The notes: generated from the sequence alone by a model not told the origin. A DNA stretch of 64,000 nt from Candidatus Curtissbacteria bacterium (GCA_024654445.1 JANLHP010000022.1:15332-79331), one strand, 5' to 3'; positions 5,069 through 63,672 are shown, counted from the stretch's first letter. Made by a program: numbers and translations.

Positions 5069-5210
5069 GGACTAAAGCCCATGATTAGGCCCGGAATCAC
5101 ATTTAGTTACATAAATATGACGAGGACCGCATGGCACTGTAGGTTTTGACATTCGCTTAAAGAATCACTCTCAGCCTCAACTTGAAAGCTGGGGCTTCTC
5201 GCTCACAATA
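5069..5210 (+). repeat. Intergenic repeat element, copy A (forward). Its 3' part overlaps the C-terminal codons of the ORF 5177..6709.
   Basis: Shares ggactaaag..ttaggcccgga..GACGAGGACCGCAyGGCAyTGTA..ttttgaYATTCGCT..ctcgctcaYaata with copies at 17461, 35631 and 63582. Confidence 0.8.
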
Positions 5211-6709
5211 ACCTTGTTTATAAATTTGTCGATCTCCATAAAAGATTTGATGCCAAAAGCAGAAACATAATGATTCGAAAATTTATTTTGATAAAATCTC
5301 TGCCTTTTTAGTTTATTTTTGTCGTATAAAATCTTTTTAATGCCAACATCAATATCTTCAAGCTGATCAAATTTTATGTTTATCGAGCTCTTACTTTTAA
5401 CAAAAGGATCCCCGAATTTTCCAGACAGAAATGAATTATCGAAGTAGAGTGTTGGCTTATTTTTCAAAATTGCAATCAGACCCGCAGTTGTCGCGCCTGT
5501 TATTACAACGTCACTCTTATTAATAACATTTTCTACCTTACTTGAATTATCCACCTTTACATTTGCGGGAAGTTCCAGATCGTCAAGGTCGTCCCTTAAA
5601 GAATAAGAAGGGTGGTTTCTCAGAATAATTCTAAATCCCGAATCTAATTTTGAAAGCCCTTTAACTAGCTTTTCAATCGATTGTTTATTCGAGTACCTTA
5701 AAAAAAGAGACAAAGTTCCAAAAATAGGTGCCCATAAAACTAAAACGTTTATGATCTTTTTTTCTTTCAAGTTAACATGATTAATGTGTTTCGGCCTTTT
5801 ATAATACGGACAGCCGGCTATATATGCATTTTTAGGGTGGATCATTTTCGCCAGTCTGCCCCATACCAAATAATAATCAGAAAAGTAAAAATCAGATTCA
5901 ATTATTTCCCAGGTCGCTATTCCATGTTGAATTTCAGCAACCTTTATTCCAAATGACTTCGCCATTAAAGCAAAAGCTGAGCCAAATGTATCATTGCTCG
6001 TTGAAGTTAAAATAACTTGAGGTTTCGCTCGTAAATAAAGATAAAAGGCAAAATTTAAAAAAGAAACAATTTCAGGAAACAAAAAAAGCCTTAAATACCA
6101 TAATCTGAGCGTCCAGGGTCGACCGGCAAGAAGTGCATTCTCATTTTCTACCCGCCATCTTCTAAAGACAAAAAAAGATAAGGCTTTCAACCGCTCGCGT
6201 CGTGATTGGTACCTTTGAGTGTTGGTGAGATTTAAAAATGAAATATTGATACTTTTCAGATATTTTTGATCAACCTCTGTTATTTTCCCGACGACTAAAA
6301 CCTTCCTCCTCTTTGAGAGGTACTTAATGAGTGGCAAAAGACCACTTAGGTGCCTGCCGCTAGCCACTATTAAAACCTCAGATGCCACATGTGGCCATTT
6401 AATTTTTGCCCTTGGCGCCACAATCAATTTAAGAAGGTGAGTAAGCTTTGATGCATATTTAAGTGCCTTTCGGCCGGGACTTAAGGAGTAAGCAAACGTT
6501 TGTGGGTATTGTCCCCAAACGTCATCTATAGGCTGCTTTTGTAAAAGCGACGAAAAAAAATGATGCTGAGAGAAAGCCTGAATTTTTTCCAGTGATATGC
6601 CATAAAACTTATAATTATTATTCGGATAATACTTGGAGATCCAGTTTTTCGACAAATCAACTGAATAGTCGTACAAGTTTTTTGACTTATTAAATGAGGA
6701 AGCAATCAC
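5177..6709 (-). CDS. GT-B-like protein with an HP motif; putative CMP-ulosonic-acid (sialyl/Kdo-type) transferase. A TagF-like glycerophosphotransferase is the alternative.
   Basis: It carries an RNHPSY (HP) motif and a GCPYY motif, and is paralogous to 15055..16371 (RPHPW, GTPRFE). It lies between a methyltransferase and the nonulosonate synthase operon. Confidence 0.35.
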   Translation of the reverse strand: MIASSFNKSKNLYDYSVDLSKNWISKYYPNNNYKFYGISLEKIQAFSQHHFFSSLLQKQPIDDVWGQYPQTFAYSLSPGRKALKYASKLTHLLKLIVAPRAKIKWPHVASEVLIVASGRHLSGLLPLIKYLSKRRKVLVVGKITEVDQKYLKSINISFLNLTNTQRYQSRRERLKALSFFVFRRWRVENENALLAGRPWTLRLWYLRLFLFPEIVSFLNFAFYLYLRAKPQVILTSTSNDTFGSAFALMAKSFGIKVAEIQHGIATWEIIESDFYFSDYYLVWGRLAKMIHPKNAYIAGCPYYKRPKHINHVNLKEKKIINVLVLWAPIFGTLSLFLRYSNKQSIEKLVKGLSKLDSGFRIILRNHPSYSLRDDLDDLELPANVKVDNSSKVENVINKSDVVITGATTAGLIAILKNKPTLYFDNSFLSGKFGDPFVKSKSSINIKFDQLEDIDVGIKKILYDKNKLKRQRFYQNKFSNHYVSAFGIKSFMEIDKFINKVIVSEKPQLSS

Positions 6710-8250: not shown

Positions 8251-8260
8251 TAGCTTGCTG

Positions 8261-9388: not shown

Positions 9389-9397
9389 AACTTATGT

Positions 9398-16380: not shown

Positions 16381-17376
16381 TTAATAACCTGCGCCATCTG
16401 AAGCTATATCAGAAATAAGTGTTTTAATCTTCTCCGCGCTAAGCCATTTGTTATTGTTGTCGCTGCTATACATAAATCCGTCAACTGGCTTCTTTTTAAC
16501 TTTACTGCTACCGGCCCACCAGTCGAATTCCGGTTCAATTAAAAAATAGTTCTTAAATTCCCTTGTATGTCTTGATTCGTCAAAACTAATCAACGCTTCG
16601 TGGAGCTTTTCACCGGGTCTTATTCCAACAATTCTAATTTTAGAATTTGGAGAAATAGCCTTTGCAACTTCAGTAATCCTGACACTTGGAATTTTTGGTA
16701 CGAATATCTCTCCGCCCTTCATTTTTCCAAGTGTATTTATAACCAGCTCAACCCCCTGCTCCAAGGTAATCCAGAATCTTGTCATTCTAATGTCGGTTAT
16801 CGTAATGTGATTATTTTTCGCTTGAGAAATAAAAACAGGAACAACACTACCACGCGAGCCCATTACATTTCCGTACCTTACAACACTAAACTTCGTACTC
16901 TTTTCCCCTCCATAAGAATTCGCTTGAATGAAAATTTTCTCGGCAACCATTTTAGTGGCACCGTATAAGTTTACTGGAGAAACTGCTTTATCTGAAGAAA
17001 TTAAAATAACTTTTGAAACATTTTCATCAAGCGAAGCCTCAATGACATTCTCACTCCCCATAATGTTTGTGTGAATTGCTTCAAAAGGGTTATACTCTAA
17101 AAGAGGCACCTGCTTAAGGGCCGCGGCGTGTATTACATAATCTACGCCAACAATTGCTCGCTTTAATCTTCTTAAGTCCCTTACATCTCCCAATAAAAAT
17201 CTTAACCTTTTGTCTCCCTGATATTTCGCCATAAGTGCGTGTTGCTTAAATTCATCCCTGGAATAAATTCTAATAACACCCTTAAAAGTTTTTTGCGAAA
17301 GTAGATGAGCGATAAATGCTTTTCCAAATGATCCAGTGCCGCCTGTTAGAAGAATTGTTTGTTTTGTTAAATTCAT
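16381..17376 (-). CDS. pseB: UDP-N-acetylglucosamine 4,6-dehydratase (PseB/FlaA1/CapD family).
   Basis: LLTGGTGSFGKAF Rossmann motif and YGATKMVAEK catalytic YxxxK. Length and domain order match PseB/FlaA1. Confidence 0.8.
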   Translation of the reverse strand: MNLTKQTILLTGGTGSFGKAFIAHLLSQKTFKGVIRIYSRDEFKQHALMAKYQGDKRLRFLLGDVRDLRRLKRAIVGVDYVIHAAALKQVPLLEYNPFEAIHTNIMGSENVIEASLDENVSKVILISSDKAVSPVNLYGATKMVAEKIFIQANSYGGEKSTKFSVVRYGNVMGSRGSVVPVFISQAKNNHITITDIRMTRFWITLEQGVELVINTLGKMKGGEIFVPKIPSVRITEVAKAISPNSKIRIVGIRPGEKLHEALISFDESRHTREFKNYFLIEPEFDWWAGSSKVKKKPVDGFMYSSDNNNKWLSAEKIKTLISDIASDGAGY

Positions 17377-17460
17377 GAAGTCAAAAGTCTCCGTATTTTA
17401 TGCGAATTGTTGCCACATTTACAAGGTGATCACATAAAGTACAGCTCAGAAGTTACTTTA

Positions 17461-17701: not shown

Positions 17702-17711
17702 CTGTGGGAAT

Positions 17712-19394
17712 CTATTTTATCTTTAAAACATCAAAATATGGACCGGGTCTATCCACCAAAAATAGCGGAAAGTTATAAGGCGCGTCAAAGAAAGCTTCAG
17801 GTATTTTGTAATTATAAACAATTTCTCCGGTTGGAGAAAAATGAACAATTAATTCGAAATCAAAACTACTTGAGTTAAATAATAATCGATCATAAGAGCC
17901 AAGATAAGAATCGACTACATATTTGACAGGGTAAACAGACGATGCCCTTTGAAGATCTTCCTCTTTTGATCGTGTTTGAAATTCGTTTATATAAACCACA
18001 TTTCTAACGTTTGGCGGATATGTTTCACCCGTTAACTCCGCCGCCCGCGAGTAGAAACCTGGCCGGAATTCTCTAATTGGGGCTGACGCTCTAGCATTAG
18101 GAACGTGACCAAAATTTCTTCTAATTGTATACGCAATTGGAACTTCACTCCTTATGTTTTTATCAACCCATTCATGGACTTGAGAAAAAGTAGGTGTTTT
18201 TAAAATAAGAATATTCCAGTAAATGGAGTTAAGTGAAGCAAGCAAAAGGAGGATAGAGGCAAATATAACCGATGTAAAATTCAAATGAAGCACACGCGAT
18301 AAAACGAAACCCGAAAAAATAGGTAAAAGGGAAAAACTAATCAAAAAGTATCTAACAAAAGGAGGAAAGACTGTCACCACTAAAAGAAAGTTTAAGAAAA
18401 TAAATAAAAAAAACGGCAAATATTCCCGCCGCCAATTAGTTCTTTTGGTGAAAAATAACATTGCGCTTCCCACGATAATACCGTCGGTTTTAATTAAGTC
18501 TCCAAAAACCTTTTGCACGTTTCCTTCATTTATATAAAACCGCAAAACGTCAAATAAATTGTCCGATGCGTGGGGAAGTTTAATAAGTCCGACATTAGGA
18601 TTTCCCGGGGAAACTATTTTAAAAAAATCTCCACCAACACTCAGAAAATTAAAAACAAGAATTAAAAAAGCCCAAAGTAGCAAAGCTGATAAATTAGTAA
18701 GAATAACTTTTTTCTCAAAAAGATTTCTACTTGAAATTAACCTAAGAAGAATGATCAAAATAATAACCATGCCGCTAATCTGATGAAATCCAAATGAGAT
18801 TGCAGAAAAGATGAAGGCAAAAGTTACATTCTTGAATTCCGAATCATGCTTCTTAATACTTTTATAAGCAAACAACACGGAAAGGAGTGCGAAGAAAATA
18901 GCCGGGGACCAAGCCCTCGCTAAATGAGAAACATGAACTAAATTAAATGAAATCGCAAAAAGCGCGCTTGCCCACAAAGCGGCTTTTTTACTTTCAAAAA
19001 TTTCAACAGTTAGCTTGTAAATAACAAGCACACTTAAAACCCCAAAAAGTGCGGAAATTACGCGAGGAATAAACGTCAGGTAACCTTCTTGCGTTACGAG
19101 TAAAAATTCAAAATCGCGGATGTTGTGTACTTTTCCAGATAAAAACATAACAACAAAGGAAAGAAGAATAAATGGAATTTGCGCGTAAGATCCTAAAGGG
19201 CCGTAGTTGCCAATGCTAAAAATAGATTTTGTGGCAAGCATATTTAACGCGCTCAAATGGTAAATCGCCTCGTCGTTTGACATGTAAAGAATTGGGAATC
19301 CAACCGTAAGGTTATTGAAGCGGAGTAAAAACCCCATCAAAAGTATTAGAAGCAAAAAATATTTAGGAGATATATTTCTTAAGAAACTCATCAA
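17712..19394 (-). CDS. GT-C-fold membrane glycosyltransferase (GT39/GT83, PMT/ArnT-like).
   Basis: An acidic motif in the first loop (YMSNDEAIY), 11-13 TM helices, and a C-terminal periplasmic domain. Confidence 0.6.
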   Translation of the reverse strand: MMSFLRNISPKYFLLLILLMGFLLRFNNLTVGFPILYMSNDEAIYHLSALNMLATKSIFSIGNYGPLGSYAQIPFILLSFVVMFLSGKVHNIRDFEFLLVTQEGYLTFIPRVISALFGVLSVLVIYKLTVEIFESKKAALWASALFAISFNLVHVSHLARAWSPAIFFALLSVLFAYKSIKKHDSEFKNVTFAFIFSAISFGFHQISGMVIILIILLRLISSRNLFEKKVILTNLSALLLWAFLILVFNFLSVGGDFFKIVSPGNPNVGLIKLPHASDNLFDVLRFYINEGNVQKVFGDLIKTDGIIVGSAMLFFTKRTNWRREYLPFFLFIFLNFLLVVTVFPPFVRYFLISFSLLPIFSGFVLSRVLHLNFTSVIFASILLLLASLNSIYWNILILKTPTFSQVHEWVDKNIRSEVPIAYTIRRNFGHVPNARASAPIREFRPGFYSRAAELTGETYPPNVRNVVYINEFQTRSKEEDLQRASSVYPVKYVVDSYLGSYDRLLFNSSSFDFELIVHFSPTGEIVYNYKIPEAFFDAPYNFPLFLVDRPGPYFDVLKIK

Positions 19395-34718: not shown

Positions 34719-35630
34719 TTAACTAAAATCCCCATCCCAGCGTAAAATAGGCATTTTCGTTCCGAGGTTTTTCTTTATCATAACTACCCTGATTGGGAAC
34801 AATAGAACCCTTAAAAGAGGACTTCTTTCGACACTCGATCTAAACATTCTAAATCTTGACTTTAAATAGTTTTTAATCCGAAATGTATAATAAAACTTAG
34901 CCGAACAATATTGTTTCATCAGTTCATAAGAATCACGCTCTGCAAATTTTGAATTCTTAATTATTGTGCTGTTCGCCTTTACTTTATGCACAAAAAGGTT
35001 AACCCTGCAAAATCTAACTTTCCCTCCTCTCTCTAAGGATTGGAGGGCGTAAGCGACGTCAGAACTTACTCTTGATGGATATAAGCCGATTAAGGGGATG
35101 GAACTTCGCCTCGTTATAAACCCAACTCCGCATGCACCATAATTGAAAAAGTCCTCGTAATTTTTGCCGTATTCAATACCCGGAGGAACATAAACTTGTC
35201 TTATGTTTCTGCCGATCATTTTTGATCCACCGCAGATTAATAGATCGATATCCTTATTTTTTCCCAGAACCTTAATGGCTTTTTCCATCGCCTCCGGATA
35301 AATAATATCGTCGTCGCTTATATTTTTGATATATTTTCCTCTCGCTAGCATGATCCCCTTGTTGAAGGCATGTGTAGGGCTTATATCAGGTTCGGAAATA
35401 TACACATTTACAAGTTTTCTGTATTTTTTCATAAATGCAGCAGGATCAATTTTAGACAAGCTATCAACAACTATTAACTCATCTGATGAGTTCAAAAGCC
35501 CCTCGATATTTTTAAGTATTGCCTCGATCGATTTTCCTCTATTTTTAATTGTCAAAATATAGGAGATTCTTTTTTTTGAGTAGGAATCAAAACTTGGGCG
35601 CCCTTGCATCAGTGGAAATAAACTACACAC
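34719..35630 (-). CDS. GT2-family glycosyltransferase (GTG start).
   Basis: ISYILTIKNRG and SDDDIIYPE (DXD) GT-A motifs. Confidence 0.65.
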   Translation of the reverse strand: MCSLFPLMQGRPSFDSYSKKRISYILTIKNRGKSIEAILKNIEGLLNSSDELIVVDSLSKIDPAAFMKKYRKLVNVYISEPDISPTHAFNKGIMLARGKYIKNISDDDIIYPEAMEKAIKVLGKNKDIDLLICGGSKMIGRNIRQVYVPPGIEYGKNYEDFFNYGACGVGFITRRSSIPLIGLYPSRVSSDVAYALQSLERGGKVRFCRVNLFVHKVKANSTIIKNSKFAERDSYELMKQYCSAKFYYTFRIKNYLKSRFRMFRSSVERSPLLRVLLFPIRVVMIKKNLGTKMPILRWDGDFS

Positions 35631-35763: not shown

Positions 35764-35789
35764 ATATCAGATCTTACTAGAAATTAAAA

Positions 35790-36395
35790 TTGATTTATGC
35801 AAAAATAGACTTCCTGTCCTCGCTAATGTCCGACCCAGATTTTTTTCATGACATAATCTCAGATCACGTTAAGGTTGTTCTCGAACTGCCAACAGAAGAG
35901 ATTAACGATTTAGCAGCCGACATTCAAGAAACTCTTAGGCGAGGCGGCAAAGTAATTTTCTTTGGTAATGGCGGTTCGGCTACTCAAGCTGCCCATTGGG
36001 CAGAGGAATTTGTCGGAAGATTTGTTAAAAAAAGAAAACCTCTCGCTTGCTTGGCACTTGGAACAAGCTCCGCCAACTTAACAGGAATCGCTAATGATTT
36101 CGGGTTCGATGAGGTATTCGCAAGAGAGTTGGAAGTTTTAGGAAACAAAAAAGACCTAGCAATAGGCGTATCAACATCTGGAAACTCGCCAAATATTTTA
36201 AACGGATTGCAAACTGCTAAGAAAAAGGGAATAAAATCCTGGATATTAACAGGCAAAAGTAAAAACAAAGCAAAAAAATTAGCAGACAAATCTCTTTCGG
36301 TCGCCTCGGACAAAACGGCAAGAATTCAAGAAATTCATGCTCTTGTAATCCACATGGTTTGCGAAAAGATTGACGAAAAAGTAAAAGCAAATTAA
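35790..36395 (+). CDS. gmhA: Sedoheptulose-7-phosphate isomerase (SIS domain).
   Basis: KVIFFGNGGSATQAAHWAEEF and STSGNS SIS motifs. Length is about 200 aa. Confidence 0.85.
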   Translation: MIYAKIDFLSSLMSDPDFFHDIISDHVKVVLELPTEEINDLAADIQETLRRGGKVIFFGNGGSATQAAHWAEEFVGRFVKKRKPLACLALGTSSANLTGIANDFGFDEVFARELEVLGNKKDLAIGVSTSGNSPNILNGLQTAKKKGIKSWILTGKSKNKAKKLADKSLSVASDKTARIQEIHALVIHMVCEKIDEKVKAN

Positions 36396-45095: not shown

Positions 45096-45965
45096 TCATC
45101 CCTCTATAATTTCTTTTCTCGCCGCCCTTAGCTCTTCTTCGGAAAGCGCCGCGTTATGCCACCTTAAATTATTTTCCATAAACGAAACACCCTTACCCTT
45201 TATTGTGTTAGCGATAACAACTACCGGCTTTTTAGAAAGTTCAATCTTGCCAAATGTGCCCAGAATCTCACCAAAATCGTGACCGTTAATTTCAAAAATA
45301 TTCCACCCAAAGCTCATCATTTTCTCCTTAAAGTTTTTATACAGTCCTTCGTCATCGATGACATCAGTTACCATTAATCTGTTTCTGTCTATAATTACGA
45401 CTAAATTATTGAGTTTGTAATCACTTGCGAAAATAACCGATTCCCAAATAGAACCCTCGAAAGGCTCAGAATCGCCGATAATAGTATATGCTCTGTAATT
45501 TTCCCCGTTTTTTTTAGCAGCGAGAGCAATGCCGGCAGCAACCCCAACCGAATGACCAATTGAACCCGTGTTAAAATCCACCCCGTTTATCCATGTTTCC
45601 AGCTGACCTCCAAGTCCACCATTTTCGCCGTAAGAGCTATACATCTCTTTTGAAATTATTCCTAAATCTAAAAAGATTGCGTAAAGAGCGGTACAGGCAT
45701 GTCCCTTACTTAAGATAAACCGATCCCTATTTTCCCAGTTCAAATTATTCGTTTTATAACGTAAAATTTTTCCGTAATACAAAGCCACCAGTAATTCGAC
45801 GCAAGAATAAGTTCCTCCAAGATGAGCCTTACCGCTTTTCGCGGCCGCGTTTAAAACCTCGAGTCGTACCCACCTTGATTTATCTTTAAGATCGGCTTTT
45901 AGGCCCGCAGTCGAAGACGAGGACCGCAAGCCCCGCTTCTTCGCAGAAAGGCTTTGCTTCTTCAT
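45096..45965 (-). CDS. Transketolase N-terminal subunit (TPP-binding).
   Basis: GHxG...GDSE...ESV TPP-binding motif (TIIGDSEPFEGSIWES). Confidence 0.85.
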   Translation of the reverse strand: MKKQSLSAKKRGLRSSSSTAGLKADLKDKSRWVRLEVLNAAAKSGKAHLGGTYSCVELLVALYYGKILRYKTNNLNWENRDRFILSKGHACTALYAIFLDLGIISKEMYSSYGENGGLGGQLETWINGVDFNTGSIGHSVGVAAGIALAAKKNGENYRAYTIIGDSEPFEGSIWESVIFASDYKLNNLVVIIDRNRLMVTDVIDDEGLYKNFKEKMMSFGWNIFEINGHDFGEILGTFGKIELSKKPVVVIANTIKGKGVSFMENNLRWHNAALSEEELRAARKEIIEG

Positions 45966-50747: not shown

Positions 50748-52031
50748 TTAATCATTCAATGAATGTCTCTGCCATTTAAGCATGGGCCTTACGACGCCAG
50801 GATAAAATCCTGTTGAGTGTCCGCGAACCGAGTTTCCTTCAGTCGGATCAACTACATCAAAAACAACCGCGTCAGGAACATCGACCTCTCGCGTCTTGCC
50901 ACTCTCCTCATCAACGACAGTAACCCTAGCAGAAAAAACTCCTTCAGATAAAAAATTTCCCGGAATCACACATCTACTTTTATATTTTCCACTTTTTTTC
51001 ATTCTGATTTTCCTGTCTATATCCTCAGCAGAATTAAAAATGGTTAGGCCTTCACTATTTATAATTTGTAAATTGCATCCGACCCAGCGGTCCCCATTCG
51101 CAGAAAAGCTCTGCTTATTTTTCAAAACCTCAAATTCGACTTCTACGGTTATAGGTTTTCGTATATCAAAAGTATTAGACAAGCGATTATGCTTATCCAA
51201 GGCTTTGACGTTGATAAGCCGCACAACATTATTCGCAAACATACGGCTCGCAACCCTTTTTTTAAGTGAAGCATTGCTCCTTGTTTCTTCCAAATACCTC
51301 GAGACTATTTTTTCAGCGTTGCCGTCTGCAACAATTTTTCCGTCTTTTAAATAGATAACGCGCCGACAGATATTTATAACTGCAGGCAGATTATGAGAAA
51401 CAAAAAGGACAGTTCTGCCCTGCTTACTTACATCCTGCATTTTCCCCAGACTTTTCGATTGAAACGCTGCATCACCCACCGAAAGAACCTCATCGACAAT
51501 AAGTATTTCGGGTTCCAAATGAGCAGCCACAGCAAAAGCCAGCCTTGTATACATTCCAGAAGAATAATGTTTAACCGGCAGATCTAAAAATTTCTCCATC
51601 TCGGCAAAAGAAACAATCTCGTCAAATTTAGACTTTATTTCCAATCGAGTCATGCCCAAAATGGAACCATTTAAAAAAATATTCTCTCGTCCTGTCAGCT
51701 CCGGATGAAATCCGGTCCCAACTTCAAGCAAACTCGCAGTACGCCCCCTGAGTGTAATTTTTCCTTTTGTGGGAGGAGTAATCTGAGAAAGAATCTTCAG
51801 TAGCGTGCTTTTGCCGGCGCCATTTTTACCGATAATACCGACAACTTCGCCAGCGCCAACGTTGAAAGAAACGTTCTTTAGAGGCCAGAACTCATCTTCT
51901 CTTTTTGAACTAAAAACAGATAAAGGGTTTTTGGCAATTTGAGCAATCGAGTCACGAAGTGAATAATATTGTTGTCTTTCCGCAACCCTATATTTTTTAG
52001 AAACCGATTTAACTTCGATAATCGAACTCAT
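50748..52031 (-). CDS. wzt: ABC transporter ATP-binding protein of polysaccharide exporters (Wzt-like) with a C-terminal glycan-binding extension.
   Basis: Walker A GKNGAGKST, signature YSSGM, Walker B LIVDE, and a roughly 180 aa C-terminal beta-rich domain. Confidence 0.85.
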   Translation of the reverse strand: MSSIIEVKSVSKKYRVAERQQYYSLRDSIAQIAKNPLSVFSSKREDEFWPLKNVSFNVGAGEVVGIIGKNGAGKSTLLKILSQITPPTKGKITLRGRTASLLEVGTGFHPELTGRENIFLNGSILGMTRLEIKSKFDEIVSFAEMEKFLDLPVKHYSSGMYTRLAFAVAAHLEPEILIVDEVLSVGDAAFQSKSLGKMQDVSKQGRTVLFVSHNLPAVINICRRVIYLKDGKIVADGNAEKIVSRYLEETRSNASLKKRVASRMFANNVVRLINVKALDKHNRLSNTFDIRKPITVEVEFEVLKNKQSFSANGDRWVGCNLQIINSEGLTIFNSAEDIDRKIRMKKSGKYKSRCVIPGNFLSEGVFSARVTVVDEESGKTREVDVPDAVVFDVVDPTEGNSVRGHSTGFYPGVVRPMLKWQRHSLND

Positions 52032-52894
52032 GCAATATCGGCAAAGAATCTTTCTGTCACCCTAAAATAAGTGAGACCAATAACAAACACGATTAACGAA
52101 AAAACTGAGGATATAAAAAGCACGCCCAAGTCTACCCTGCCTGATCCGGAAAGGACTATCCTCATGGTCTCAATTACACCAGTCATTGGGTTGAAGGCTA
52201 AAATAGGTCTAAAAGAATCCCTTACAACCGCAGAGGGATAAATAACGGGAGTCAAAAAAAGCATAGATTGAATAAAAAAAGGCAAAATGTATCTAACGTC
52301 CCTGTACCTCACATTAAATGAAGCAAGAAAAAGGCCAATTCCGGAAGAAGTCAAAAAAATAATCAGAATTACAATTGGCAAATAAATAAAAATGGTAGGC
52401 GAAGGAACGAACCCAAAATAAAAAGTAACAATCAAAACAACCAAAAACGCAATCGCAAAATCAACAAACGAGGTAATGATTGCTGAAATTGGAAGTATTT
52501 CCCTCGGAAAATAAACCTTCTTTATTATATTGACATTTTCGACCATCGAATTACTCGCTGCAGTTACACTTGCGGAAAAAAATATCCAAAATACAAGACC
52601 AATAAATACAAATAATTCATAAGGCAAATTTCCGGAAGGAATATTGGCAAGCCTGCCAAAAAAAATAGTAAATATTCCTGTCGTTGCCAGGGGTTGGAAA
52701 ATAACCCAAATTATTCCAAGGAAAGTCTGCTTATAGCGTACTTTGATGTCTCTCCAGGAAAGAATAAAAAAAAGTTCTCTATATCGCCACAATTCTTTTA
52801 AACTTACCAAATGCCATTTTTGTTTTGGTGCAATTGTAAGCTCATAATTTTTCATTGTCGGTGTTAGCCTTCTTGTTATTGTGCTCTTAACCAT
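52028..52894 (-). CDS. wzm: ABC-2 type polysaccharide export permease (Wzm-like).
   Basis: Six TM helices and the WRDIKVRYKQTFLGIIW N-terminal signature of Wzm/KpsM. It overlaps wzt by 4 nt. Confidence 0.85.
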   Translation of the reverse strand: MVKSTITRRLTPTMKNYELTIAPKQKWHLVSLKELWRYRELFFILSWRDIKVRYKQTFLGIIWVIFQPLATTGIFTIFFGRLANIPSGNLPYELFVFIGLVFWIFFSASVTAASNSMVENVNIIKKVYFPREILPISAIITSFVDFAIAFLVVLIVTFYFGFVPSPTIFIYLPIVILIIFLTSSGIGLFLASFNVRYRDVRYILPFFIQSMLFLTPVIYPSAVVRDSFRPILAFNPMTGVIETMRIVLSGSGRVDLGVLFISSVFSLIVFVIGLTYFRVTERFFADIA

Positions 52895-53823
52895 TCAACA
52901 TATTTTGTAAGGCCCGCAGTAAACTGAACTTTTGGCTCCCACCCCAAAAGTTTTTTAGCTTTTACAATATTTGCCCATGTATTTTCAACATCACCGTTTT
53001 GCATAGGCATATTTTTAATAACAGCTTTTAAAGAAAGCAACTTTTCTAAAGTTTCAATAAACTCATTTAATGAAACCGGGTTACTGTTTCCCAAATTTAT
53101 GATCTCAAAATCCAAGTCAGTTTCGAGAGTTTTTACTATGCCGTCAATAATATCATCAATGTACGTATAATCTCGACTGCTATCTCCCTCGCCAAACTTT
53201 ATAATGGGTTTGTCTTCAAGTATGGCGTTAGTAAAAAGTGAAGGCGCCATGTCAACTCTACCCTTCGGACCATAGACCGTAAAAAATCGCAAAATTACAA
53301 TTTTAAGGCCGAAATTTTTATGAAAGCTCCTAGCAAAAAACTCTGCAGCTCTCTTAGAAGCTCCGTATGGAGAAACAATATTTTCGCAAAGATCATCTTC
53401 GGTGAACGGAATTTGCTTGCTGTTTCCATAAACGGAAGAAGAAGAGCCGAATATAAACTGCTTCACGTTCATGTCGCTAGCTGCCTTTAGAAGATTTGTT
53501 GTTCCCAAAACATTCACTTGTGAATACAGAAGCGGGTCCTCTATTGAAGGACGAACACCGGCCCTCGCCGCCAAATGGATAATCTTGTCAAATTTTTCGA
53601 CTTTAAATATCTCAGTAAGCTTTTTAAAGTCCAATATGTCAGCGCGAAACAATTTAAAATTTTTAGAACCAAGAACGTGATCAAGATTCCTCTCTTTAAT
53701 TTGTGGGTCGTAATAATTATTAAAGTTGTCAATTCCAACTACAGCATGTCCATCGCCAAGGAGTCTCTCAACAAGAGTCGAACCGACAAAACCTGCACAA
53801 CCTGTTACTAATATTTTGTGCAT
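52876..53823 (-). CDS. NAD-dependent nucleotide-sugar epimerase (UDP-glucuronate 4-epimerase-like).
   Basis: ILVTGCAGFVGS and YGASKRAAE catalytic motif. Confidence 0.65.
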   Translation of the reverse strand: MHKILVTGCAGFVGSTLVERLLGDGHAVVGIDNFNNYYDPQIKERNLDHVLGSKNFKLFRADILDFKKLTEIFKVEKFDKIIHLAARAGVRPSIEDPLLYSQVNVLGTTNLLKAASDMNVKQFIFGSSSSVYGNSKQIPFTEDDLCENIVSPYGASKRAAEFFARSFHKNFGLKIVILRFFTVYGPKGRVDMAPSLFTNAILEDKPIIKFGEGDSSRDYTYIDDIIDGIVKTLETDLDFEIINLGNSNPVSLNEFIETLEKLLSLKAVIKNMPMQNGDVENTWANIVKAKKLLGWEPKVQFTAGLTKYVEWLRAQ

Positions 53824-53825
53824 AT

Positions 53826-56670: not shown

Positions 56671-56688
56671 ATCAACTGATCTTGTATT

Positions 56689-58089
56689 CTAAGGTAATTC
56701 GGGGCAGTTCTCAAATTCAACAAAACAGTACTTATAATTTTTTTCCCTGAACCAGAAATCTATTGCCTTTCCGGTACCTAAAGAAATGTACTGATCCTGT
56801 GAAGATGCATTATTCGCACCATCAAAAATTAACATAGAACCACTTGGTAAATTTTTGTCTTTTACATTTTTAATCGCTTCTTTTGCGACGATACTTCTTG
56901 CAATAACCCAGCTGTTTTTCATCGCAAGTGTTTGTCCATAAGTTGCAATAATCAAAAATAAAAGAGCAAGAGAAACTAAGTGAGATGACTTCAGTTTTTG
57001 AACAGCAAAGCCGATAATCCCGCTCAACCCAAATGCGCTGATTACCATGTAATGCGCACCCAGGTGACTCGGTATCAAAACAAACGGGAAAAGGCCAACA
57101 ACTGTTATAAAACAAAGAAATATAAATGTTCGTAAGTCGTCTTTGTTTCTAAACCCCCGAATATATATAAGGCAAATCACAAAAAGGTATGAAATAAGAG
57201 CAAGCGAAAAAAGACTCTTCCCTTGGCCTTCAACAAAACCGAGTATCCTTAACAGATAAAATCTAAAAGTGAAAATTGTCCTTTGCGAAATCTCGAGGAC
57301 GTAAACATTCAAAGTATCGGGGGGAGTAAAAAATAAAAGCTTTACTCCCGAAAAGAGAACAGTCAACGCAAAAAGTGCTGATAAAAAAGAAAAGTCACTC
57401 TTTATTCCGAGCGAAAAATTCCGGCTTTTAAGCCGGGGATGAAGCGAATCTTTGAGCGAGGAAGAGAGAACCACGGCCGAAAGAACGTGGGAATCTATCC
57501 TTTTAAGAAAAACAGAAGTCGCGACAAATATTAAAATACCAACAACTATCGCTTCCGTTGCAAGCAATGAAAGAAAATAAAATAAAAATGCCCCAAGCTT
57601 TCTTTTTATAATAAAAAGATAAAGGCTAAGAGAAAAGAACAGAAATCCAATATTCACCGCTCCTCCGGAAATCCAGAATAGGGAAGTGAAGTGCAAGGGG
57701 TGAGTAGCGTAAACAACAGACGCGAAAAAACCAGAAATATTATTTTTGAAAAGTTTTCCAAAAACCAAAAAAACCATAAATGCGCAAAGAGTGTGAATGA
57801 GAAGAATTACTACGTGGTAAGCAGGGTAAAATTTCCCAAAAAGATTACCTGTTATAAGAAAAAACAAGTTATGTATAGGTCGCCAGTGAGTAACTTCTGG
57901 AGGACCGAATACATTTTGTAAATCCACCAAAAAGGAATTTTGAGAAAAATTATTTATTAAAATAAAATCATCTTGAGCGAAGAAATTAAAAAGAGATCTA
58001 AACCATACTACGACAATAACTAAAGTTAAAATCAAAAAAACAACCGAGTTTTTACTCACAGTTTTAATTCTATCATCGAAGAATGGCAA
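56689..58089 (-). CDS. GT-C-fold membrane glycosyltransferase (ArnT/PMT-like).
   Basis: An acidic first-loop motif (FAQDDFIL) and more than 10 TM helices. It sits downstream of the ArnB/ArnC-like genes. Confidence 0.6.
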   Translation of the reverse strand: MPFFDDRIKTVSKNSVVFLILTLVIVVVWFRSLFNFFAQDDFILINNFSQNSFLVDLQNVFGPPEVTHWRPIHNLFFLITGNLFGKFYPAYHVVILLIHTLCAFMVFLVFGKLFKNNISGFFASVVYATHPLHFTSLFWISGGAVNIGFLFFSLSLYLFIIKRKLGAFLFYFLSLLATEAIVVGILIFVATSVFLKRIDSHVLSAVVLSSSLKDSLHPRLKSRNFSLGIKSDFSFLSALFALTVLFSGVKLLFFTPPDTLNVYVLEISQRTIFTFRFYLLRILGFVEGQGKSLFSLALISYLFVICLIYIRGFRNKDDLRTFIFLCFITVVGLFPFVLIPSHLGAHYMVISAFGLSGIIGFAVQKLKSSHLVSLALLFLIIATYGQTLAMKNSWVIARSIVAKEAIKNVKDKNLPSGSMLIFDGANNASSQDQYISLGTGKAIDFWFREKNYKYCFVEFENCPELP

Positions 58090-58123
58090 AAATATGAATT
58101 CTGCCTGATATAATCAAGTTTAA

Positions 58124-59707
58124 GTGAATGGACTCCTTAAACTACTTATCGCGGCTGCTCTTTTAAACTCTTTGTCGTGGATTATTTTAACTCCCGTTTG
58201 GCAATACCCGGATGAACAAGCGCATTTTTCTCAAGTACAGGATATGGCGGAAATTGGATATGTACCAACAAGCCTAAACACGTCCCAAGAAGTTTCCCTC
58301 TCTGAACAAATACTTGAAACCGAAAGAAACAACCTTGGAAACAACAAATTCACGTATCACCCGGAATATAAAATTAATTATGGCAACGGTTGGTATGGCC
58401 CCAGAGAACGGGAGCTTGCGCAATTACAAGAGTCAGAGCGCACAAACTTTGTAAAAAATGAAGCAACTCAAAACCCTCCTTTTTACTACACGCTCGCATC
58501 TATTTTTTATAACATCTTTGACGGTGGCAGTATCCTCAATCGCGTGTACGCGGTAAGGTTTATGTCTGCATTACTTTTTGTCGCAAATATTTATGTCGCG
58601 GCAAAAATTGGAAACATTGTCTTCCCTAAAGAGAAAATTTTAGCTTTCACAATTCCCACGCTTGTTGCTTTCAAGCCAATGCTTGTCCATGCGTCAACCG
58701 GAGTACTTCCCGACACGCTCACGAATCTCCTATTCAGCGCAGTACTGCTCGTTTGTTTAAAGATCATGACAGTTGGATTAAAAACAAAGTTCCTCCTTAT
58801 AGGGATTGTGCTCATAACAGCAGGAGTTTTTACTAGGCAGCAATTTCTTCTCGCAGTTCCAATTTTGGCAATAAGCGCCGCATTTAGCGTTTGGAAAAAG
58901 AAGAAGGTTCTTTCCTTGACAATCGCCTCAATTCTAATTATTGCAATTTGCCTTCTTGAAGCAGGTTACAGGTTTGCGTCAACCCCTTTTATTTCTTATT
59001 TTCGAATCCCGGAATTAAGTCTTATCAAAGTAGAATCTCTCGCAAGCGAATCAATTATCGATTATTTGAAATGGTCAATAAGGCAAACCATAGCTCAAAC
59101 TCTGCCTTGGTATTGGGGAGTCTACAAATGGCTGTCTTTAACAGTGCCGCATTTAAATTATCAAATTATAAATAGAATCATAATAGTCTCAGTCGTAGGA
59201 GTACTTCTAAGGTATTTCTTAGCCTTCCGTAACCGAAAATTTACCCAACAAGACGTATTGTTGACGTTTTTGATTATCGCAAGCCTTGTTTACTTTGCCC
59301 TCTTTTTAGTCTGGGATTACTTTTTCGTTCAAACTCACAATTTCCCATTTGGTTTTCAGGGAAGATATTTTTTTCCGCTCGTAGTTGCACATATAACGAT
59401 TCTATTGCTTGGGCTTATGGAAATTGCCCGATTAATTTTAAAAGACAGGGCGTGGCTTTTGGCACCTTTACTTGTCGCGGCGATGATTATTTTTAATTGG
59501 GTTTCTCTGTTTACCGTTGCTTCCTCATACTACGGCACATCAAATCTTAACCTTTTTATAGATCAGGCCAGTCAGTACAAACCCGAAATCGTAAAGGGTA
59601 ATGCAATCCTTCTTATACTGCTGCTATCAATTGTGTCCCAAATAATCCTCGTTTTAAATTTTTCTAAATTTACTCTCAAGCATCCTAAATGGCAAACAGA
59701 AAGGTAA
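58124..59707 (+). CDS. DUF2142/GT-C-like polytopic membrane protein (GTG start).
   Basis: YPDEQAHF motif near the N-terminus and many TM helices. It is a paralog of 2623..4119. Confidence 0.45.
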   Translation: MNGLLKLLIAAALLNSLSWIILTPVWQYPDEQAHFSQVQDMAEIGYVPTSLNTSQEVSLSEQILETERNNLGNNKFTYHPEYKINYGNGWYGPRERELAQLQESERTNFVKNEATQNPPFYYTLASIFYNIFDGGSILNRVYAVRFMSALLFVANIYVAAKIGNIVFPKEKILAFTIPTLVAFKPMLVHASTGVLPDTLTNLLFSAVLLVCLKIMTVGLKTKFLLIGIVLITAGVFTRQQFLLAVPILAISAAFSVWKKKKVLSLTIASILIIAICLLEAGYRFASTPFISYFRIPELSLIKVESLASESIIDYLKWSIRQTIAQTLPWYWGVYKWLSLTVPHLNYQIINRIIIVSVVGVLLRYFLAFRNRKFTQQDVLLTFLIIASLVYFALFLVWDYFFVQTHNFPFGFQGRYFFPLVVAHITILLLGLMEIARLILKDRAWLLAPLLVAAMIIFNWVSLFTVASSYYGTSNLNLFIDQASQYKPEIVKGNAILLILLLSIVSQIILVLNFSKFTLKHPKWQTER

Positions 59708-60849
59708 CCCTCGACGTTAAAAGAAATTTAGCAGTCATACTGCTTTTAGTTTTCGCAACTGCCCAATTCATTTTAATCCTGCGCCACAAAAATCCATACG
59801 TTTCAGACAGTTATTTTTATAAGCATACATACTATCAACTTAAAGGTTTAAGCTACGACGAGGCCCAAGCAAAAATCATTAGCGAAGTAGACCTGATAGC
59901 AGCGGACGAAATTACCAGAAATTTTTTTCAAAACAAGGAAACTTACGCTAATTCGTATTCATTTTTCCAAAAAAGACCCTTTTACCCTCTTACCGCGTAT
60001 TTGGCAAGCCTATTTAATCTCAACGATTATTTATCTTTTCAAATACCCGTATTTACCGCTTATATCTTAAGCGTTATTCTTGTGTTCCGCCTGTCAAAAG
60101 AAGGACTGGGCTACTTTTTTGCTATCATTTCAACTGCACTTTTTGTTTCTTTCTATCCGTTTCTTGACAGTTCAACTTATTTTTTAACAGACACAATCGG
60201 TTTTGCCTTTTGGTTAAGCCAGATATTCACGATTTACAATTACATCAAAAGTAAAAAGAGCAAATGGCTTATATTCTTCTTTATCTCTCTCTCAATCTCC
60301 CTCTTAAACAGAGAGCAAAGCGTTCTCATGGCGCCACTACTTATGAGCGCTTTAGTCCTTCAAAAACTCCTCTTACTAAAAGGCGCGAGTCAAATTAAAA
60401 AATTGCTCTTTGTTTCCTTCATCCCAATAATCTTATTCATCACTGTCTCCTTTATGTTAAAACTCCCAAATATATACGACACCATCAGCTACACTCAAAA
60501 TAATTACGGCTTGCGTTCAAACAAATTTACAGCGGAAGAAACTTTTAGGTATATGGCAAACGCGATTAAGATATCACATTATGTTTTTATAAGAGACATC
60601 GTCAGTCACCACTGGTGGTTACTCTTGTCCGCGCTGGCAGCAGTTAGTGCTTTGAGGTCTTTGGTAAAAGGGAAAAGAAATAATTTGGACATCCTTATTG
60701 TAAGCTCGGCCCTAGCTTCGTATCTGGCTATTTTTATCTATCCCGTTTTAAGTTACAGATATTTCTTGCCAATAGTTTTCGCTGTTTCATACTTCAGCGT
60801 AAAAATACTCCGAGATTATAATAAGGAAGTTATGTCAAAAAACAAATGA
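59689..60849 (+). CDS. Polytopic membrane protein of unknown function (polymerase, ligase or GT-C-like).
   Basis: Ten or more hydrophobic helices. It lies in an operon with a GT-C and an acetyltransferase. Confidence 0.35.
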   Translation: MANRKVTLDVKRNLAVILLLVFATAQFILILRHKNPYVSDSYFYKHTYYQLKGLSYDEAQAKIISEVDLIAADEITRNFFQNKETYANSYSFFQKRPFYPLTAYLASLFNLNDYLSFQIPVFTAYILSVILVFRLSKEGLGYFFAIISTALFVSFYPFLDSSTYFLTDTIGFAFWLSQIFTIYNYIKSKKSKWLIFFFISLSISLLNREQSVLMAPLLMSALVLQKLLLLKGASQIKKLLFVSFIPIILFITVSFMLKLPNIYDTISYTQNNYGLRSNKFTAEETFRYMANAIKISHYVFIRDIVSHHWWLLLSALAAVSALRSLVKGKRNNLDILIVSSALASYLAIFIYPVLSYRYFLPIVFAVSYFSVKILRDYNKEVMSKNK

Positions 60850-61385
60850 AAGCCAGGGAAGAGCTAGGCACTAAAAAAATTCTAGAGTTTGCGTTTTTTT
60901 CCTTTCTCCAACTGATTTATTGCCTCCTGTTTTTACCGCCTTTAAAAAAGATTTCCCTGGAGCTTTTGGGCGCCCGAATAGGGCAGGGGACAGTCATCAT
61001 GAATGCCAAATTTTTCAACTTGCACCACAATGGACTTAAAGGGTTCAAAACGGGAAGAGATTGTTTTATTGCCGATGATGTCCTTATCGATCTTTACGAC
61101 AACGTAACTCTCGAAGACCAAGTAACTCTGGCACAAAGAGTAACTGTGCTTACACATCTAAATGTGGGGTACAAAGATCATCCGCTTCAAAAGTATTTCC
61201 CGAAAAGATCAGAACCTGTAGTCTTTAAAAACGGTTGTGTAGTTGGCGCAAGTTCAACAATTCTCAGTGGCGTGACAATTGGAGAAAAATCCTTTGTTGC
61301 TGCCGCAAGCCTTGTAACAGAAAATGTGCCACCAAATACATTAGTTGGCGGAGTACCCGCGAAAATAATTAGGAAAATTAAATGA
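60846..61385 (+). CDS. Hexapeptide-repeat (left-handed beta-helix) acetyltransferase, sugar O-acetyltransferase type.
   Basis: Tandem hexapeptide repeats near the C-terminus (GCVVGASSTILSGVTIGEKSFVAAASLV). Confidence 0.8.
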   Translation: MKAREELGTKKILEFAFFSFLQLIYCLLFLPPLKKISLELLGARIGQGTVIMNAKFFNLHHNGLKGFKTGRDCFIADDVLIDLYDNVTLEDQVTLAQRVTVLTHLNVGYKDHPLQKYFPKRSEPVVFKNGCVVGASSTILSGVTIGEKSFVAAASLVTENVPPNTLVGGVPAKIIRKIK

Positions 61386-61945
61386 TGATTCCATTCTATG
61401 AATCATTAAGGCCACTCATCCTGCCTTTAAGTCAGATAGACAGCCTTCTGCCAAAGCAAGGAACAATCGTTGAGCTTGGATGTGGTCAAGCAGTAATTGC
61501 AATCTATCTGGCAAAAAACAAAAAAAGAAAAGTAATTGGAGTCGACCAAGACACTTCGAGGCTTCCAAAAAATTCCACAAAAAATCTAAAGTTTATAAAT
61601 GCCGATATCAGAACTTACAAATTGGAAAAAGCGGACGGGGTAGTAATATCAGATGTCCTTCATCATATCAGTTCAAAAGACCAAGAAAAAATCCTCCAAA
61701 ACATTGCAAATTCTTTAAGAAAGGGCAAGATATTGATTATAAAAGAGATCGACACGGAAGAGAAAGTTAGAAGCAAGTTATCACGTCTCTGGGATTTTAT
61801 CCTTTACCCTAGGGACCACATCGACTACTGGAGCTCGAGCGCCCTTAAGTCTCAGCTTGAGCGGTTAGGCTTCAGGGTTGAAATAAAAAGAACTATAAGA
61901 CCGTTTCCGGCGTCAACCACCCTATTTATTTGTATAAAAATGTAA
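61382..61945 (+). CDS. Class I SAM-dependent methyltransferase.
   Basis: TIVELGCGQAV motif I and the acidic post-I VIGVDQD. Confidence 0.75.
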   Translation: MMIPFYESLRPLILPLSQIDSLLPKQGTIVELGCGQAVIAIYLAKNKKRKVIGVDQDTSRLPKNSTKNLKFINADIRTYKLEKADGVVISDVLHHISSKDQEKILQNIANSLRKGKILIIKEIDTEEKVRSKLSRLWDFILYPRDHIDYWSSSALKSQLERLGFRVEIKRTIRPFPASTTLFICIKM

Positions 61946-61982
61946 TTTTTCCTAATAAATATGTGAGAAACTCATTTTTCAT

Positions 61983-63581
61983 ATGTACAAAAATTTAATC
62001 CGACATTGGCCACTATTGCTGATTGTAATTCTGGCATTTGTCTTAAGAGTTGTAAATCTAGAAAAACTTTTTTACTTCACATACGATGAATCTATACCTG
62101 CCTTCGTCGGAAGGAGACTGATTCTCACAAACCACATACCACTTATCGGGGGAGTAACACCCTTTGGATTCCACCTTGGACCATACTTTTACTGGCTCTT
62201 GGCACTGCTCTTATATATTGGCAAGTTAAATCCAATCGTGTGGGGAATTGCGGGGGCTCTTTTAGGAAGCGCCACAACTTTTATGGCGTATGTTGCGGGA
62301 CAAAAGTTCCTGAACAAAAAAGCCGGCGTAACGGCTGCCGTGTTTTGGGCATTTTCTTTTCTTGCGAATCTGTACGACAGACACTTTTGGGCTTTGTCTT
62401 GGGGTCCAATTATTTCACTGATCGTGTTGTTTTCTCTTCATGGAATAATCAAAGGAAATTCAAGATTTGTTTATCCACTCGCTGTCTCTGTCGCTTTTGG
62501 TATCCACGCCGACCCTTCCAACCTCGTATTTGTATTGCTCGTTGGGCTGGTGTGGGCAATCTACAAGTTGCCAATTACAAGACACACGCTTCTTGCCACG
62601 AGCTTAATTATTTTCTCATTCCTTCCCCTTGTCGCTTTCGACCTTAGACATGATTTTGCAAATACTCGACCTATGATTTCTCATTTCAAAAACTTTTCAA
62701 ACCGGCAGCCAGATCAAAAAACACTTTCACAAAGAGCGACTGACAACGCTATCATATTTCCCGCGGCCTTCGCGAGACTCGTTTATACTCTTGGAGACAA
62801 CGAAGTCTCTAAACAATACTCATACTGTGGAAATTACGTCGCCGAAAAAACAAGAATTATTCCAGTGTATTTGATACTACTGGCATCATCCCTCCTTACC
62901 GGCTTTGCGCTTTGGGGATTCAACCAAAAAACCAAAAACCCCGCCATCTTTATATCAGCCCTTCTTCTCGTAGTTTATTTTCTTGGCATCCAACTTTATG
63001 GAACCCTTGCAAAAGCGGATATTTTTGAACATTACATTTCAGGGACTTTCGCGATTTTTCTTTTAATTTTGGCAAAGGTTGTAAGCAAATTACCAAGAAA
63101 GCTTTGGCTCGTCGTACTGGCAATCTTTGTTGGCGCTAATCTCTACAAGCTGTTAATTGCCACCAACTCGCATGGGCTAACACAAAAGAGAGAGGCAATA
63201 GAATATGTTAATTCCAGAGTAGGGGACGCGCCTTTCTCCCTAGAATCAGTTTCTACGTGCTGGAAATACAATGGCTACAGATACCTGTTTACAGTTTTTG
63301 GCAAAGAACCCGTCAAAAGTTACGTCGACCCAAATTTCGCTTACCTTTATGGAACGACGACAGTTTGGGAAACCCACCCCGGCACGGTAATCGCTTTTGT
63401 TACTCACGACTTTTCTGAGGAGACCGAAGAGTTTTATAAAAGATATGCGCTTTTAAAATCCCACGAGGTGAGTTCGGGAATCTTCGGTAATATAGAAGTT
63501 ATAATGATGGATAACCAGATAAAATGGTTCGATGACATTAACACTAGTGTTAAACCGCCTTCTTTTGAACAACAGCGCTAA
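61983..63581 (+). CDS. GT-C-fold membrane glycosyltransferase (GT39/GT83-like).
   Basis: First-loop YDESIPAFVGRR acidic motif, more than 11 TM helices, and a C-terminal soluble domain. Confidence 0.6.
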   Translation: MYKNLIRHWPLLLIVILAFVLRVVNLEKLFYFTYDESIPAFVGRRLILTNHIPLIGGVTPFGFHLGPYFYWLLALLLYIGKLNPIVWGIAGALLGSATTFMAYVAGQKFLNKKAGVTAAVFWAFSFLANLYDRHFWALSWGPIISLIVLFSLHGIIKGNSRFVYPLAVSVAFGIHADPSNLVFVLLVGLVWAIYKLPITRHTLLATSLIIFSFLPLVAFDLRHDFANTRPMISHFKNFSNRQPDQKTLSQRATDNAIIFPAAFARLVYTLGDNEVSKQYSYCGNYVAEKTRIIPVYLILLASSLLTGFALWGFNQKTKNPAIFISALLLVVYFLGIQLYGTLAKADIFEHYISGTFAIFLLILAKVVSKLPRKLWLVVLAIFVGANLYKLLIATNSHGLTQKREAIEYVNSRVGDAPFSLESVSTCWKYNGYRYLFTVFGKEPVKSYVDPNFAYLYGTTTVWETHPGTVIAFVTHDFSEETEEFYKRYALLKSHEVSSGIFGNIEVIMMDNQIKWFDDINTSVKPPSFEQQR

Positions 63582-63672
63582 GACCGCATGCCACGGCCCT
63601 GAGTAATCGAAGGGGCTCTATATTAGGCCCGCAGTGTTTTGACGAGGACCGCAAGCTTTGCTTATACTCAAC
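63582..63672 (+). repeat. Intergenic repeat element, copy D (forward, shortened), upstream of the Wzx-like gene. Internally it forms a sigma70-like TTGACG-17nt-TTATAC arrangement.
   Basis: ttaggcccg...ttttGACGAGGACCGCAagc core, plus a second degenerate gaccgcatgccacggcc half-copy. Confidence 0.6.

Follow-up and report, generated by a model that had tools for sequence, protein, structure and literature searches.

Two nested families of hairpin-forming repeats, probably selfish DNA, in a glycan locus of Candidatus Curtissbacteria

The intergenic repeats of a 64,000-nt stretch of DNA from Candidatus Curtissbacteria (GCA_024654445.1, JANLHP010000022.1:15332-79331; the whole stretch is referred to here as the window) belong to two families of short elements, here called the core and the long form, which a preliminary description had merged into a single repeat. 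The two families nest in each other, and they are probably non-autonomous, hairpin-forming palindromic selfish DNA of Candidatus Curtissbacteria, similar to the Rickettsia palindromic elements (RPEs) and the repetitive extragenic palindromes (REPs), which survives either between genes or in frame within them. The 64 kb contain five cores and five long forms, distributed over the copies named A to G below. The window has a G+C content of 39% and encodes a protein with 100% identity to NUV69_04345 from a metagenome-assembled genome (MAG) of Candidatus Curtissbacteria (Patescibacteria, or candidate phyla radiation [CPR]). Loci retrieved from other genomes and metagenomes are numbered with the prefix L.

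The window contains no strong repeat family other than that of copies A, B, and C. With copy C as the query and reference, blastn aligned copy B at 78% identity over 147 nt (E=1e-27) and copy A at 72% over 159 nt (E=3e-15), which reproduces these three copies. All three are composites in which a core is nested in a long form, copy A at 5055-5211 (plus strand), copy B at 17457-17598 (minus strand), and copy C at 35617-35766 (plus strand); the preliminary description had set their ends about 14 nt too far 3'. Each is matched by the core covariance model (43.2 bits with E=2.5e-11 for A, 36.6 bits for B, and 57.5 bits for C) and by nhmmer with the long-form profile (E=4e-13, E=4e-12, and E=2.5e-15, respectively). 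Copy A consists of hairpin 1 (5066-5083), the core (5085-5131), its tail TGGCACTGTAGG (to 5143), and hairpin 3 (about 5173-5196), and the core with its tail occupies 17520-17569 in copy B and 35647-35696 in copy C. A 27-nt degenerate pattern of the core matches the A, B, and C sites only, with a shuffle expectation of 0, and the three hairpins named in the preliminary description are all present.

The long form has the layout AATAGATTCC-(hairpin 1)-TTCTCTGATCTTCGCTCAAAATTCGCTTCAT-(hairpin 3)-TTTTTTCGCTCAGAATAAA, with a 99-nt consensus (AATAGATTCCCACGGCCTAAAGGCCGTGGTTCTCTGATCTTCGCTCAAAATTCGCTTCATCTCCGGCATAAATGCCGGAGTTTTTTCGCTCAGAATAAA). It corresponds to the 140-nt unit of the preliminary description minus the core, which leaves hairpin 1 on the 5' side and TTTTGAYATTCGCT, hairpin 3, and TTCTCGCTCATAATAA on the 3' side. 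AATA stands at both ends of nearly all long forms, and an insertion lengthens the sequence by a net 93 nt (31 codons), as seen in the 31-amino-acid insert of copy E and in the repeat period of 93 at L055. The long form is itself an internal direct dimer of a hairpin unit, the two halves aligning with a score of 13 that was reached by none of 500 shuffles. Hairpin 1 is almost invariant, and hairpin 3 shows compensatory changes at six of its eight pairs, with 33 doubly changed cells compared with 11.5 after shuffling (0 of 500 shuffles reached the score).

The core consists of a left box (TTAGGCCCGCAGTC), a variable stem-loop, and a right box (GACGAGGACCGCA), followed by a 12-nt tail (AGCTYTGCTTAT or TGGCAYTGTATA). 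Its hairpin is 30 to 57 nt long, or 42 to 70 nt with the tail, the two boxes contain a direct repeat (AGGCCCGCA and AGGACCGCA), and the flanks are TTA and TA. The inner stem-loop varies greatly in length and sequence, from GTC-GAA-GAC up to nested hairpins of 35 nt, and the tail is often enlarged into a hairpin of arbitrary sequence; copies B and C have the inner hairpin GTCGAGTCTGACTCGAC in common. In many cores (L001, L010, L012, L020, L035, L039, L022, and L040) an 11-nt inner loop, GAGYUYRUCGA, was noticed, which could form tandem G·A pairs and a covarying G-C/A-U pair. In L039, L022, and L040, the unit CCYGAG...UCGARGG is nested in a copy of itself, which suggests that the palindrome grew by template switching. 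Perfect tandem duplications of the core with its flank are present at L027 (180-303) and L051 (6514-6717), with periods of 82 and 163 nt.

The relative placement of the two families identifies the core as an independent insert, since it occupies differing positions and orientations in the long form or is absent from it. In copies A, B, and C, hairpin 1 precedes the core and the 3' module follows it, an arrangement also seen in L010, L020, L023, L039, and L060, which carry a longer relative of the long form (the L010 type). In L025, L026, L073, and L099, the core is reversed and lies in the loop of hairpin 3. Copies E and G, L055, and most of the metagenome copies are long forms without a core. 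Copies A, B, and C descend from one composite. Tandem arrays of different family members are suggested at L079 (2181-2300) and L086, where a long form adjoins a tRNA-like gene on the opposite strand and is preceded by the hairpin module GAGGACTAAAAGCCCTCGG of an L010-type long form.

The coreless copies E and G were found by nhmmer profiles of the long-form parts. Copy G (17594-17716, minus strand; nhmmer E=8e-15 and sequence) lies directly upstream of copy B in tandem with it, and an ATAAA junction is common to both. The core covariance model, run on the window with filters off, found five solid copies: A (5073-5148), B (17515-17581, minus strand), C (35635-35701), F (45887-45944), and D (63611-63669). 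Copy F (45899-45962, plus strand) is a solo core (45899-45928) with the doubled tail AGCCCCGCT-TCT-TCGCAGAAAGGCTTTGCTT, recognized by a pattern search, the core model (51.9 bits, E=6e-14), and its tail motif. Copy D (63583-63665, plus strand) had been regarded as a shortened copy of the same repeat, but it lacks both hairpin 1 and the 3' module, and by blastn it has only a 13- to 14-nt exact match with A, B, and C. By alignment and the core model (50.7 bits), it has two parts, a degenerate half-core with a hairpin-bearing tail (63583-63622), similar to the L014 tail, and after it an intact solo core (63623-63665) with the tail AGCTTTGCTTAT. The repeat is therefore not a family of four copies: A, B, and C stand, D is reassigned, and E, F, and G are added by the covariance model and nhmmer.

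A marginal remnant at 51032-51122 (plus strand; GGTTAGGCC ... TTCGCAGAAAAGCTCTGCTTAT), of uncertain family membership (core model 11.3 bits, E=0.08), lies antisense inside a Wzt-like ABC ATPase open reading frame (ORF; 50748..52031, minus strand; Pfam). It has an exact 19-nt tail motif in common with copy F, L002, and L029. This third small module (TCGCAGAAARGCTYYGCTT), which stands beside the core tail or replaces it, was found in the window at 45941-45959 and 51098-51116, in L002 at 3465-3483, and in L029 at 3710-3728. It has the appearance of a core that lost its hairpin by deletion between the two CGCA repeats, and its copy at 51098 is antisense in the Wzt_C part of the ATPase ORF. At 52896-52962, where ORFs 52028..52894 and 52876..53823 (both minus strand) meet, TAAGGCCCGCAGT matches 11 nt of the left core box (core model E=0.38) and may be a remnant or a chance match.

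Copies of both families lie in frame inside genes. Copy E (57401-57498, minus strand; nhmmer E=5e-20) lies within a GT-C-like ORF of 466 codons (56689..58089, minus strand), in which it encodes IDSHVLSAVVLSSSLKDSLHPRLKSRNFSLG. This 31-amino-acid insert is missing in all ten homologues compared (40-52% identity), which align on both sides of the gap, and in the AlphaFold model it is of low confidence, with a predicted local distance difference test score (pLDDT) of about 52, and lies between confident helices. The 99-nt consensus has an open frame of 33 codons in both sense and antisense, and copy E uses a second sense frame that is open in a common variant. Elsewhere, 10 of 21 long forms are inside ORFs (6 sense and 4 antisense), and the host genes assigned by Pfam include PMT_2, RmlD (in which the insert splits the domain), DUF4147/MOFRL, and PNPOx.

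Among the cores, 16 of 65 exact copies are inside ORFs. All eight that are antisense use one frame (..QS-LRSSS..TAGLK), and those in sense read LGPQS..GRGPH or ..TRTAS. In the window, the first 22 or so codons of a transketolase ORF (45096..45965, minus strand; Pfam Transketolase_N) contain copy F, antisense and free of stops, and a frame comparison placed it in the same LRSSS..TAGLK frame as all antisense in-gene cores elsewhere. The Pfam domains that host cores include the DALR domain of ArgRS, the catalytic domain of CysRS, Mur_ligase_M, the N-terminal domain of Fpg, and HhH-GPD, and one core lies between the two halves of a GT4 glycosyltransferase. Against solved structures, the core adds 12 amino acids to LepA in comparison with EF4 of Thermus thermophilus and 13 to CysRS in comparison with that of Escherichia coli (1li5), in both cases exactly at the element. 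GT2 is also among the host genes of the elements. No in-gene copy contains a stop, and only certain reading frames are used; from these intact frames the copies are predicted to be translated, with NRFPRPKGRGSL, LGPQSEGRGPH, and QSLRSSS...TAGLK as candidate junction peptides. The LepA of L036 (1779-3773) also has a second surplus of about 19 amino acids over EF4 near its C terminus (residues ~583-601, NYQKIKGGVGSPTVASAKV), which is made of neither element family.

The core was sought with TTAGGCCCG-N5-35-GACGAGGACCGCA in one genome per species (GTDB), which gave 63 genome loci, nearly all from Curtissbacteria MAGs, with 3 to 7 exact matches per genome; the covariance model finds 73 core matches in these loci. 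A metagenome scan with the central 20 nt of the coreless long form returned 38 loci and 20 distinct complete copies, 14 of which are exactly 99 nt long. The composite pattern of A, B, and C had no match in genome contigs and the window-type 3'-module pattern none in the metagenome scan, so that this subfamily has not been seen outside the window. The core had no match in viral contigs either and thus gives no sign of phage carriage. Its neighbors are diverse, including ribosomal protein S7, an elongation factor, IF-2, Rho, CysRS, ATP synthase, GT2, and GT4; most are housekeeping genes, and glycosyltransferases are the commonest single class (11 of 90). Relative to the genes, cores have the same orientation in six cases and the opposite one in nine where they lie between codirectional genes, and inside genes the numbers are eight and eight. 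The long forms show no orientation bias either.

Some core-bearing MAGs were deposited as "uncultured Gammaproteobacteria," one as "Saccharimonadales," and one core is on a 1.1-kb contig of an anammox MAG; the oddly labeled loci are L006, L007, L011, L020, L021, L025, L030, L031, L035, L038, L044, and L053, and the presence of the core suggests mislabeled bins or contaminating contigs. In addition, L019 (1340-1500) and L055 (2600-2780), from MAG JAUYIQ01, contain, each upstream of a GT2 gene, a decayed second N terminus of that gene (..SVIIPA) 5' of the core, and the sequence after the core (AGCAGGGA and AGCAGGAATTA) is complementary to the IIPA codons of the true GT2 gene, resulting in a hairpin that encloses the ribosome-binding site and start codon of that gene.

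The random orientation bears on whether the repeat could be a structured noncoding RNA of about 140 nt that the glycan operons have in common, for example a small RNA, a ribozyme, or a riboswitch-like leader. Three conserved hairpins with compensatory changes between copies, and the location of copies B, C, and D just upstream of genes, are what such an RNA would show. It is nevertheless a very improbable explanation, as Rfam 15 has no match at the gathering score in the whole window and none at E<=10 for copy C, with chance-level matches on the L039 long form only. Moreover, the copies disagree on the strand favored by the G·U wobble positions in hairpins 1 and 3 (forward in some, reverse in others), in-gene copies are read through in frame, and the parts of the mosaic unit also occur on their own. 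The same orientation data, the copies inside genes, and the lack of an Rfam match argue against the shared structured RNA or promoter module that had been proposed. A scan of the window for tRNA and tmRNA genes found none, and the JUMPStart/ops motif (GGCGGTAG) has no match in the window. Readings as attC sites, JUMPStart/ops elements, or riboswitch leaders were rejected on the TTAGGC context, the random orientation, and the absent ops motif.

The preliminary description placed every copy at a boundary between gene blocks and proposed that the element organizes the glycan locus as a cassette junction. Copies A, B, C, and D do lie between functionally different blocks. The 3' ends of B, C, and D face genes, as stated: the pseB-like gene (16381..17376, minus strand; Pfam Polysacc_synt_2) is 80 nt downstream of copy B, a SIS/GmhA-like gene (35790..36395, plus strand) is 23 nt from copy C, and the Wzx-like gene begins 14 nt downstream of copy D. 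Copy C is flanked on the other side by a divergent GT2 gene (34719..35630, minus strand), these assignments being made with Pfam. Copy A overlaps the last codons of ORF 5177..6709 (minus strand), as had also been stated, the TGA stop (5177-5179) being inside its hairpin 3. Similarly, the TAG stop (17712-17714) of the PMT_2 ORF 17712..19394 (minus strand) comes from the 5' AATAGA of copy G. However, copy E is in a gene and copy F is within an operon, so that the copies are not confined to module boundaries. In addition, the window is nearly free of gaps, and four of the few present are almost completely made up of elements (5046-5176 of A, 17377-17711 of G and B, 35631-35789 of C, and 63582-63679 of D); because the elements are the intergenic DNA of these gaps, saying that they sit at boundaries is largely circular. 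Copy A, which is antisense to both of the minus-strand genes that flank it, and the random orientation and mostly housekeeping neighbors elsewhere likewise lend no support to a role as cassette-junction organizer.

If glycan modules were exchanged by a site-specific recombinase at these junctions, as at the attC sites of integrons, elements between functionally different gene blocks (A to D) would be expected, and the core, in which conserved outer boxes and a variable center make up an imperfect palindrome, has a superficial likeness to attC, with GTTAGGC in the left box of copy C. In most copies, however, T rather than G precedes TTAGGC, so that the R' core GTTRRRY of attC is not kept; the orientation is not fixed, copies lie beside and inside housekeeping genes, and no integrase is present among the 25 commonest families of neighboring genes. 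Comparison with the only syntenic relative also speaks against exchange at the elements. Positions 58124-64000 of the window are syntenic with 1669-7568 of L004 (Curtissbacteria RIFOXYA1_FULL_41_14) over six genes with 48-65% amino acid identity, and the homologues of ORFs 59689..60849 and 60846..61385 are swapped in L004 at junctions that carry no element, whereas the GT-C/wzx junction with copy D is unchanged. Recombination sites are thus a most unlikely explanation of the family.

As selfish DNA, the two families probably spread as follows. A core inserted once into a long form, between hairpin 1 and the remainder, and the resulting composite was then dispersed as a unit, giving A, B, and C in the window and the L010 type elsewhere. 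We infer that copying takes place at the DNA level through an enzyme supplied in trans, which may be a hairpin-recognizing transposase or recombinase, or through template switching or gene conversion at palindromes. Selection would then retain only the copies that are intergenic or in frame in tolerant protein loops. In a gene-dense island, such selective survival would leave the surviving intergenic copies at operon junctions, where they would make up most of its intergenic DNA. The preliminary description had also suggested a mobile or MITE-like repeat (miniature inverted-repeat transposable element). Dispersal, mutual nesting, and in-frame insertion largely bear this out, but a strict MITE label fails on the 99-nt consensus, which has no terminal inverted repeats.

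Several observations weigh against a selfish, mobile origin. Comparison of the first 25 nt of the 99-nt consensus with the reverse complement of the last 25 nt gives a score of 4, with a shuffle mean of 4.7. A search for a transposase or autonomous partner among the neighboring genes and through unpaired element ends, over about 700 kb of retrieved loci, found none. The ends show AATA but no clear target-site duplication, and one copy, L055, has a direct repeat of 8 nt (AATAGACT). The retrieved loci include filled alleles only, with no filled and empty pair at the nucleotide level. The mutual identity of copies A, B, and C is only 72-81% and so gives no sign that they moved recently in this genome. 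The window has a higher density of cores (5 per 64 kb) than unselected sequence (approximately 0.6 to 1.5 per 64 kb; P=0.0004-0.02), which may reflect either a high load in the genome or a permissive island. Finally, cores at orthologous sites (L017/L029 and L008/L016) are 96% identical where the coding flanks are 74-78% identical, and the orthologous D copy of L004 has identical boxes and tail, with different inner loops and unalignable flanks. The better conservation of the core is a hint that selection or gene conversion acts on it, in a comparison biased by the retrieval of the loci through exact box matches. That the invariance of the core boxes reflects strong selection was rejected as partly a retrieval artifact, since the further copies that the model detected in these loci are more diverged.

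The last two points also bear on a signal in cis that is useful to the host, that is, a portable terminator or promoter (an insulator) or a protein-binding hairpin at operon junctions, with mobility secondary or ancient. Core enrichment in the window and boxes that stay identical at orthologous sites while the flanks diverge would be expected of such a signal; again, the orthologue comparison carries the bias of locus retrieval. Hairpin 3, which is kept by compensatory changes, is followed by five to six T residues in the consensus and looks like an intrinsic terminator, so that it could possibly terminate transcription in the sense orientation, and the opposite strand of hairpin 1 is terminator-like in copies A and C. 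At the 3' end, A, B, and C have outward promoter-like hexamers (TTTAAA or TTGAAA, a 16- to 18-nt spacer, and CATAAT or CACAAT), which point toward pseB in copy B and the SIS gene in copy C. These promoter and terminator matches are weak, however, and about as frequent as in shuffled sequence, and copies A, B, and G have a degraded T-run. In both families, the orientation to neighboring genes is random, and a quarter to half of the copies lie inside coding sequences in both orientations, which makes a cis signal an unlikely primary function.

It is possible, although doubtful, that the two families form an independent RPE-like system of Curtissbacteria and perhaps other CPR bacteria, in which a 31-codon element and a nested 45-nt hairpin colonize essential genes (aminoacyl-tRNA synthetases, LepA, Mur ligase, and DNA glycosylases) and the boxes are actively maintained. 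If so, the elements would be one origin of the lineage-specific insertions that are typical of CPR proteins, and boxes that remain identical while coding flanks diverge by about 25% would point to maintenance by a hairpin-specific DNA- or RNA-binding protein or a recombinase. For the annotation of the window, the selfish-DNA reading means that its regulatory-looking repeats and several odd N- or C-terminal extensions and loops of its glycan enzymes would be element derived rather than locus-specific signals. The element can also serve as a marker for Curtissbacteria contigs. No earlier description of it in Curtissbacteria, Microgenomates, or CPR bacteria was found in the full-text literature, in which one may still exist.

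Several groups of small bacterial repeats share features with these elements. Like MITEs and the Correia (CREE), ERIC, pneumococcal BOX, RUP, and SPRITE repeats, they are small, noncoding, and multicopy and form stable hairpins; the features in common with MITEs are a length below about 500 bp, the lack of a transposase ORF, and many dispersed copies in unrelated contexts. No clear target duplication and no related insertion sequence were found for them in the retrieved loci, and the absence of terminal inverted repeats sets them apart from MITEs in the strict sense. The attC sites are also imperfect palindromes of variable length between gene cassettes, but here the R''/R' consensus (RYYYAAC/GTTRRRY) is not kept, the orientation is random, copies lie in genes, and there is no integrase or attI context. 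REPs and bacterial interspersed mosaic elements (BIMEs) of enterobacteria and pseudomonads are extragenic palindromes of 20 to 40 nt with a 5' GTAG, mobilized by RAYT (REP-associated tyrosine transposase). The core resembles them as a 30- to 57-nt imperfect palindrome with conserved boxes, many copies, mosaic units, and conservation at orthologous sites. It is not a REP, however, since it is not strictly extragenic, with 25% of cores (16 of 65) in genes, and its 5' box (TTAGGCCCGCAG) has no GTAG; no RAYT gene was identified, and no genome-wide search for one was made.

To our knowledge, there is no sequence relationship between the Curtissbacteria elements and RPEs, and this and the different host separate them from RPE families 1 to 10, which are those of Rickettsia, the host here being of the phylum Patescibacteria. 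RPEs are palindromic inserts that lie in frame in housekeeping genes and, like the Curtissbacteria elements, have no known transposase, and among other small bacterial repeats, BOX is modular, SPRITE has a terminator-like hairpin, and some make in-frame fusions (PMC10969869). In-frame selfish palindromic DNA in essential genes is best documented in Rickettsia, where its spread is unsolved. A second, unrelated system in ultrasmall uncultured CPR bacteria, with hundreds of copies in metagenomes and clear nesting, would provide independent material on how such elements spread and would make it possible to test them as the origin of the protein insertions that are typical of CPR lineages. The Curtissbacteria elements differ from RPEs in forming two mutually nesting families, a long form that adds exactly 31 codons and a core with an inner stem of variable length and a variable tail hairpin. 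As in RPEs, they are hairpin repeats of about 100 to 150 bp in a reduced genome, which lie both between genes and, with high frequency, in frame in unrelated housekeeping genes, to whose products they add a conserved peptide.

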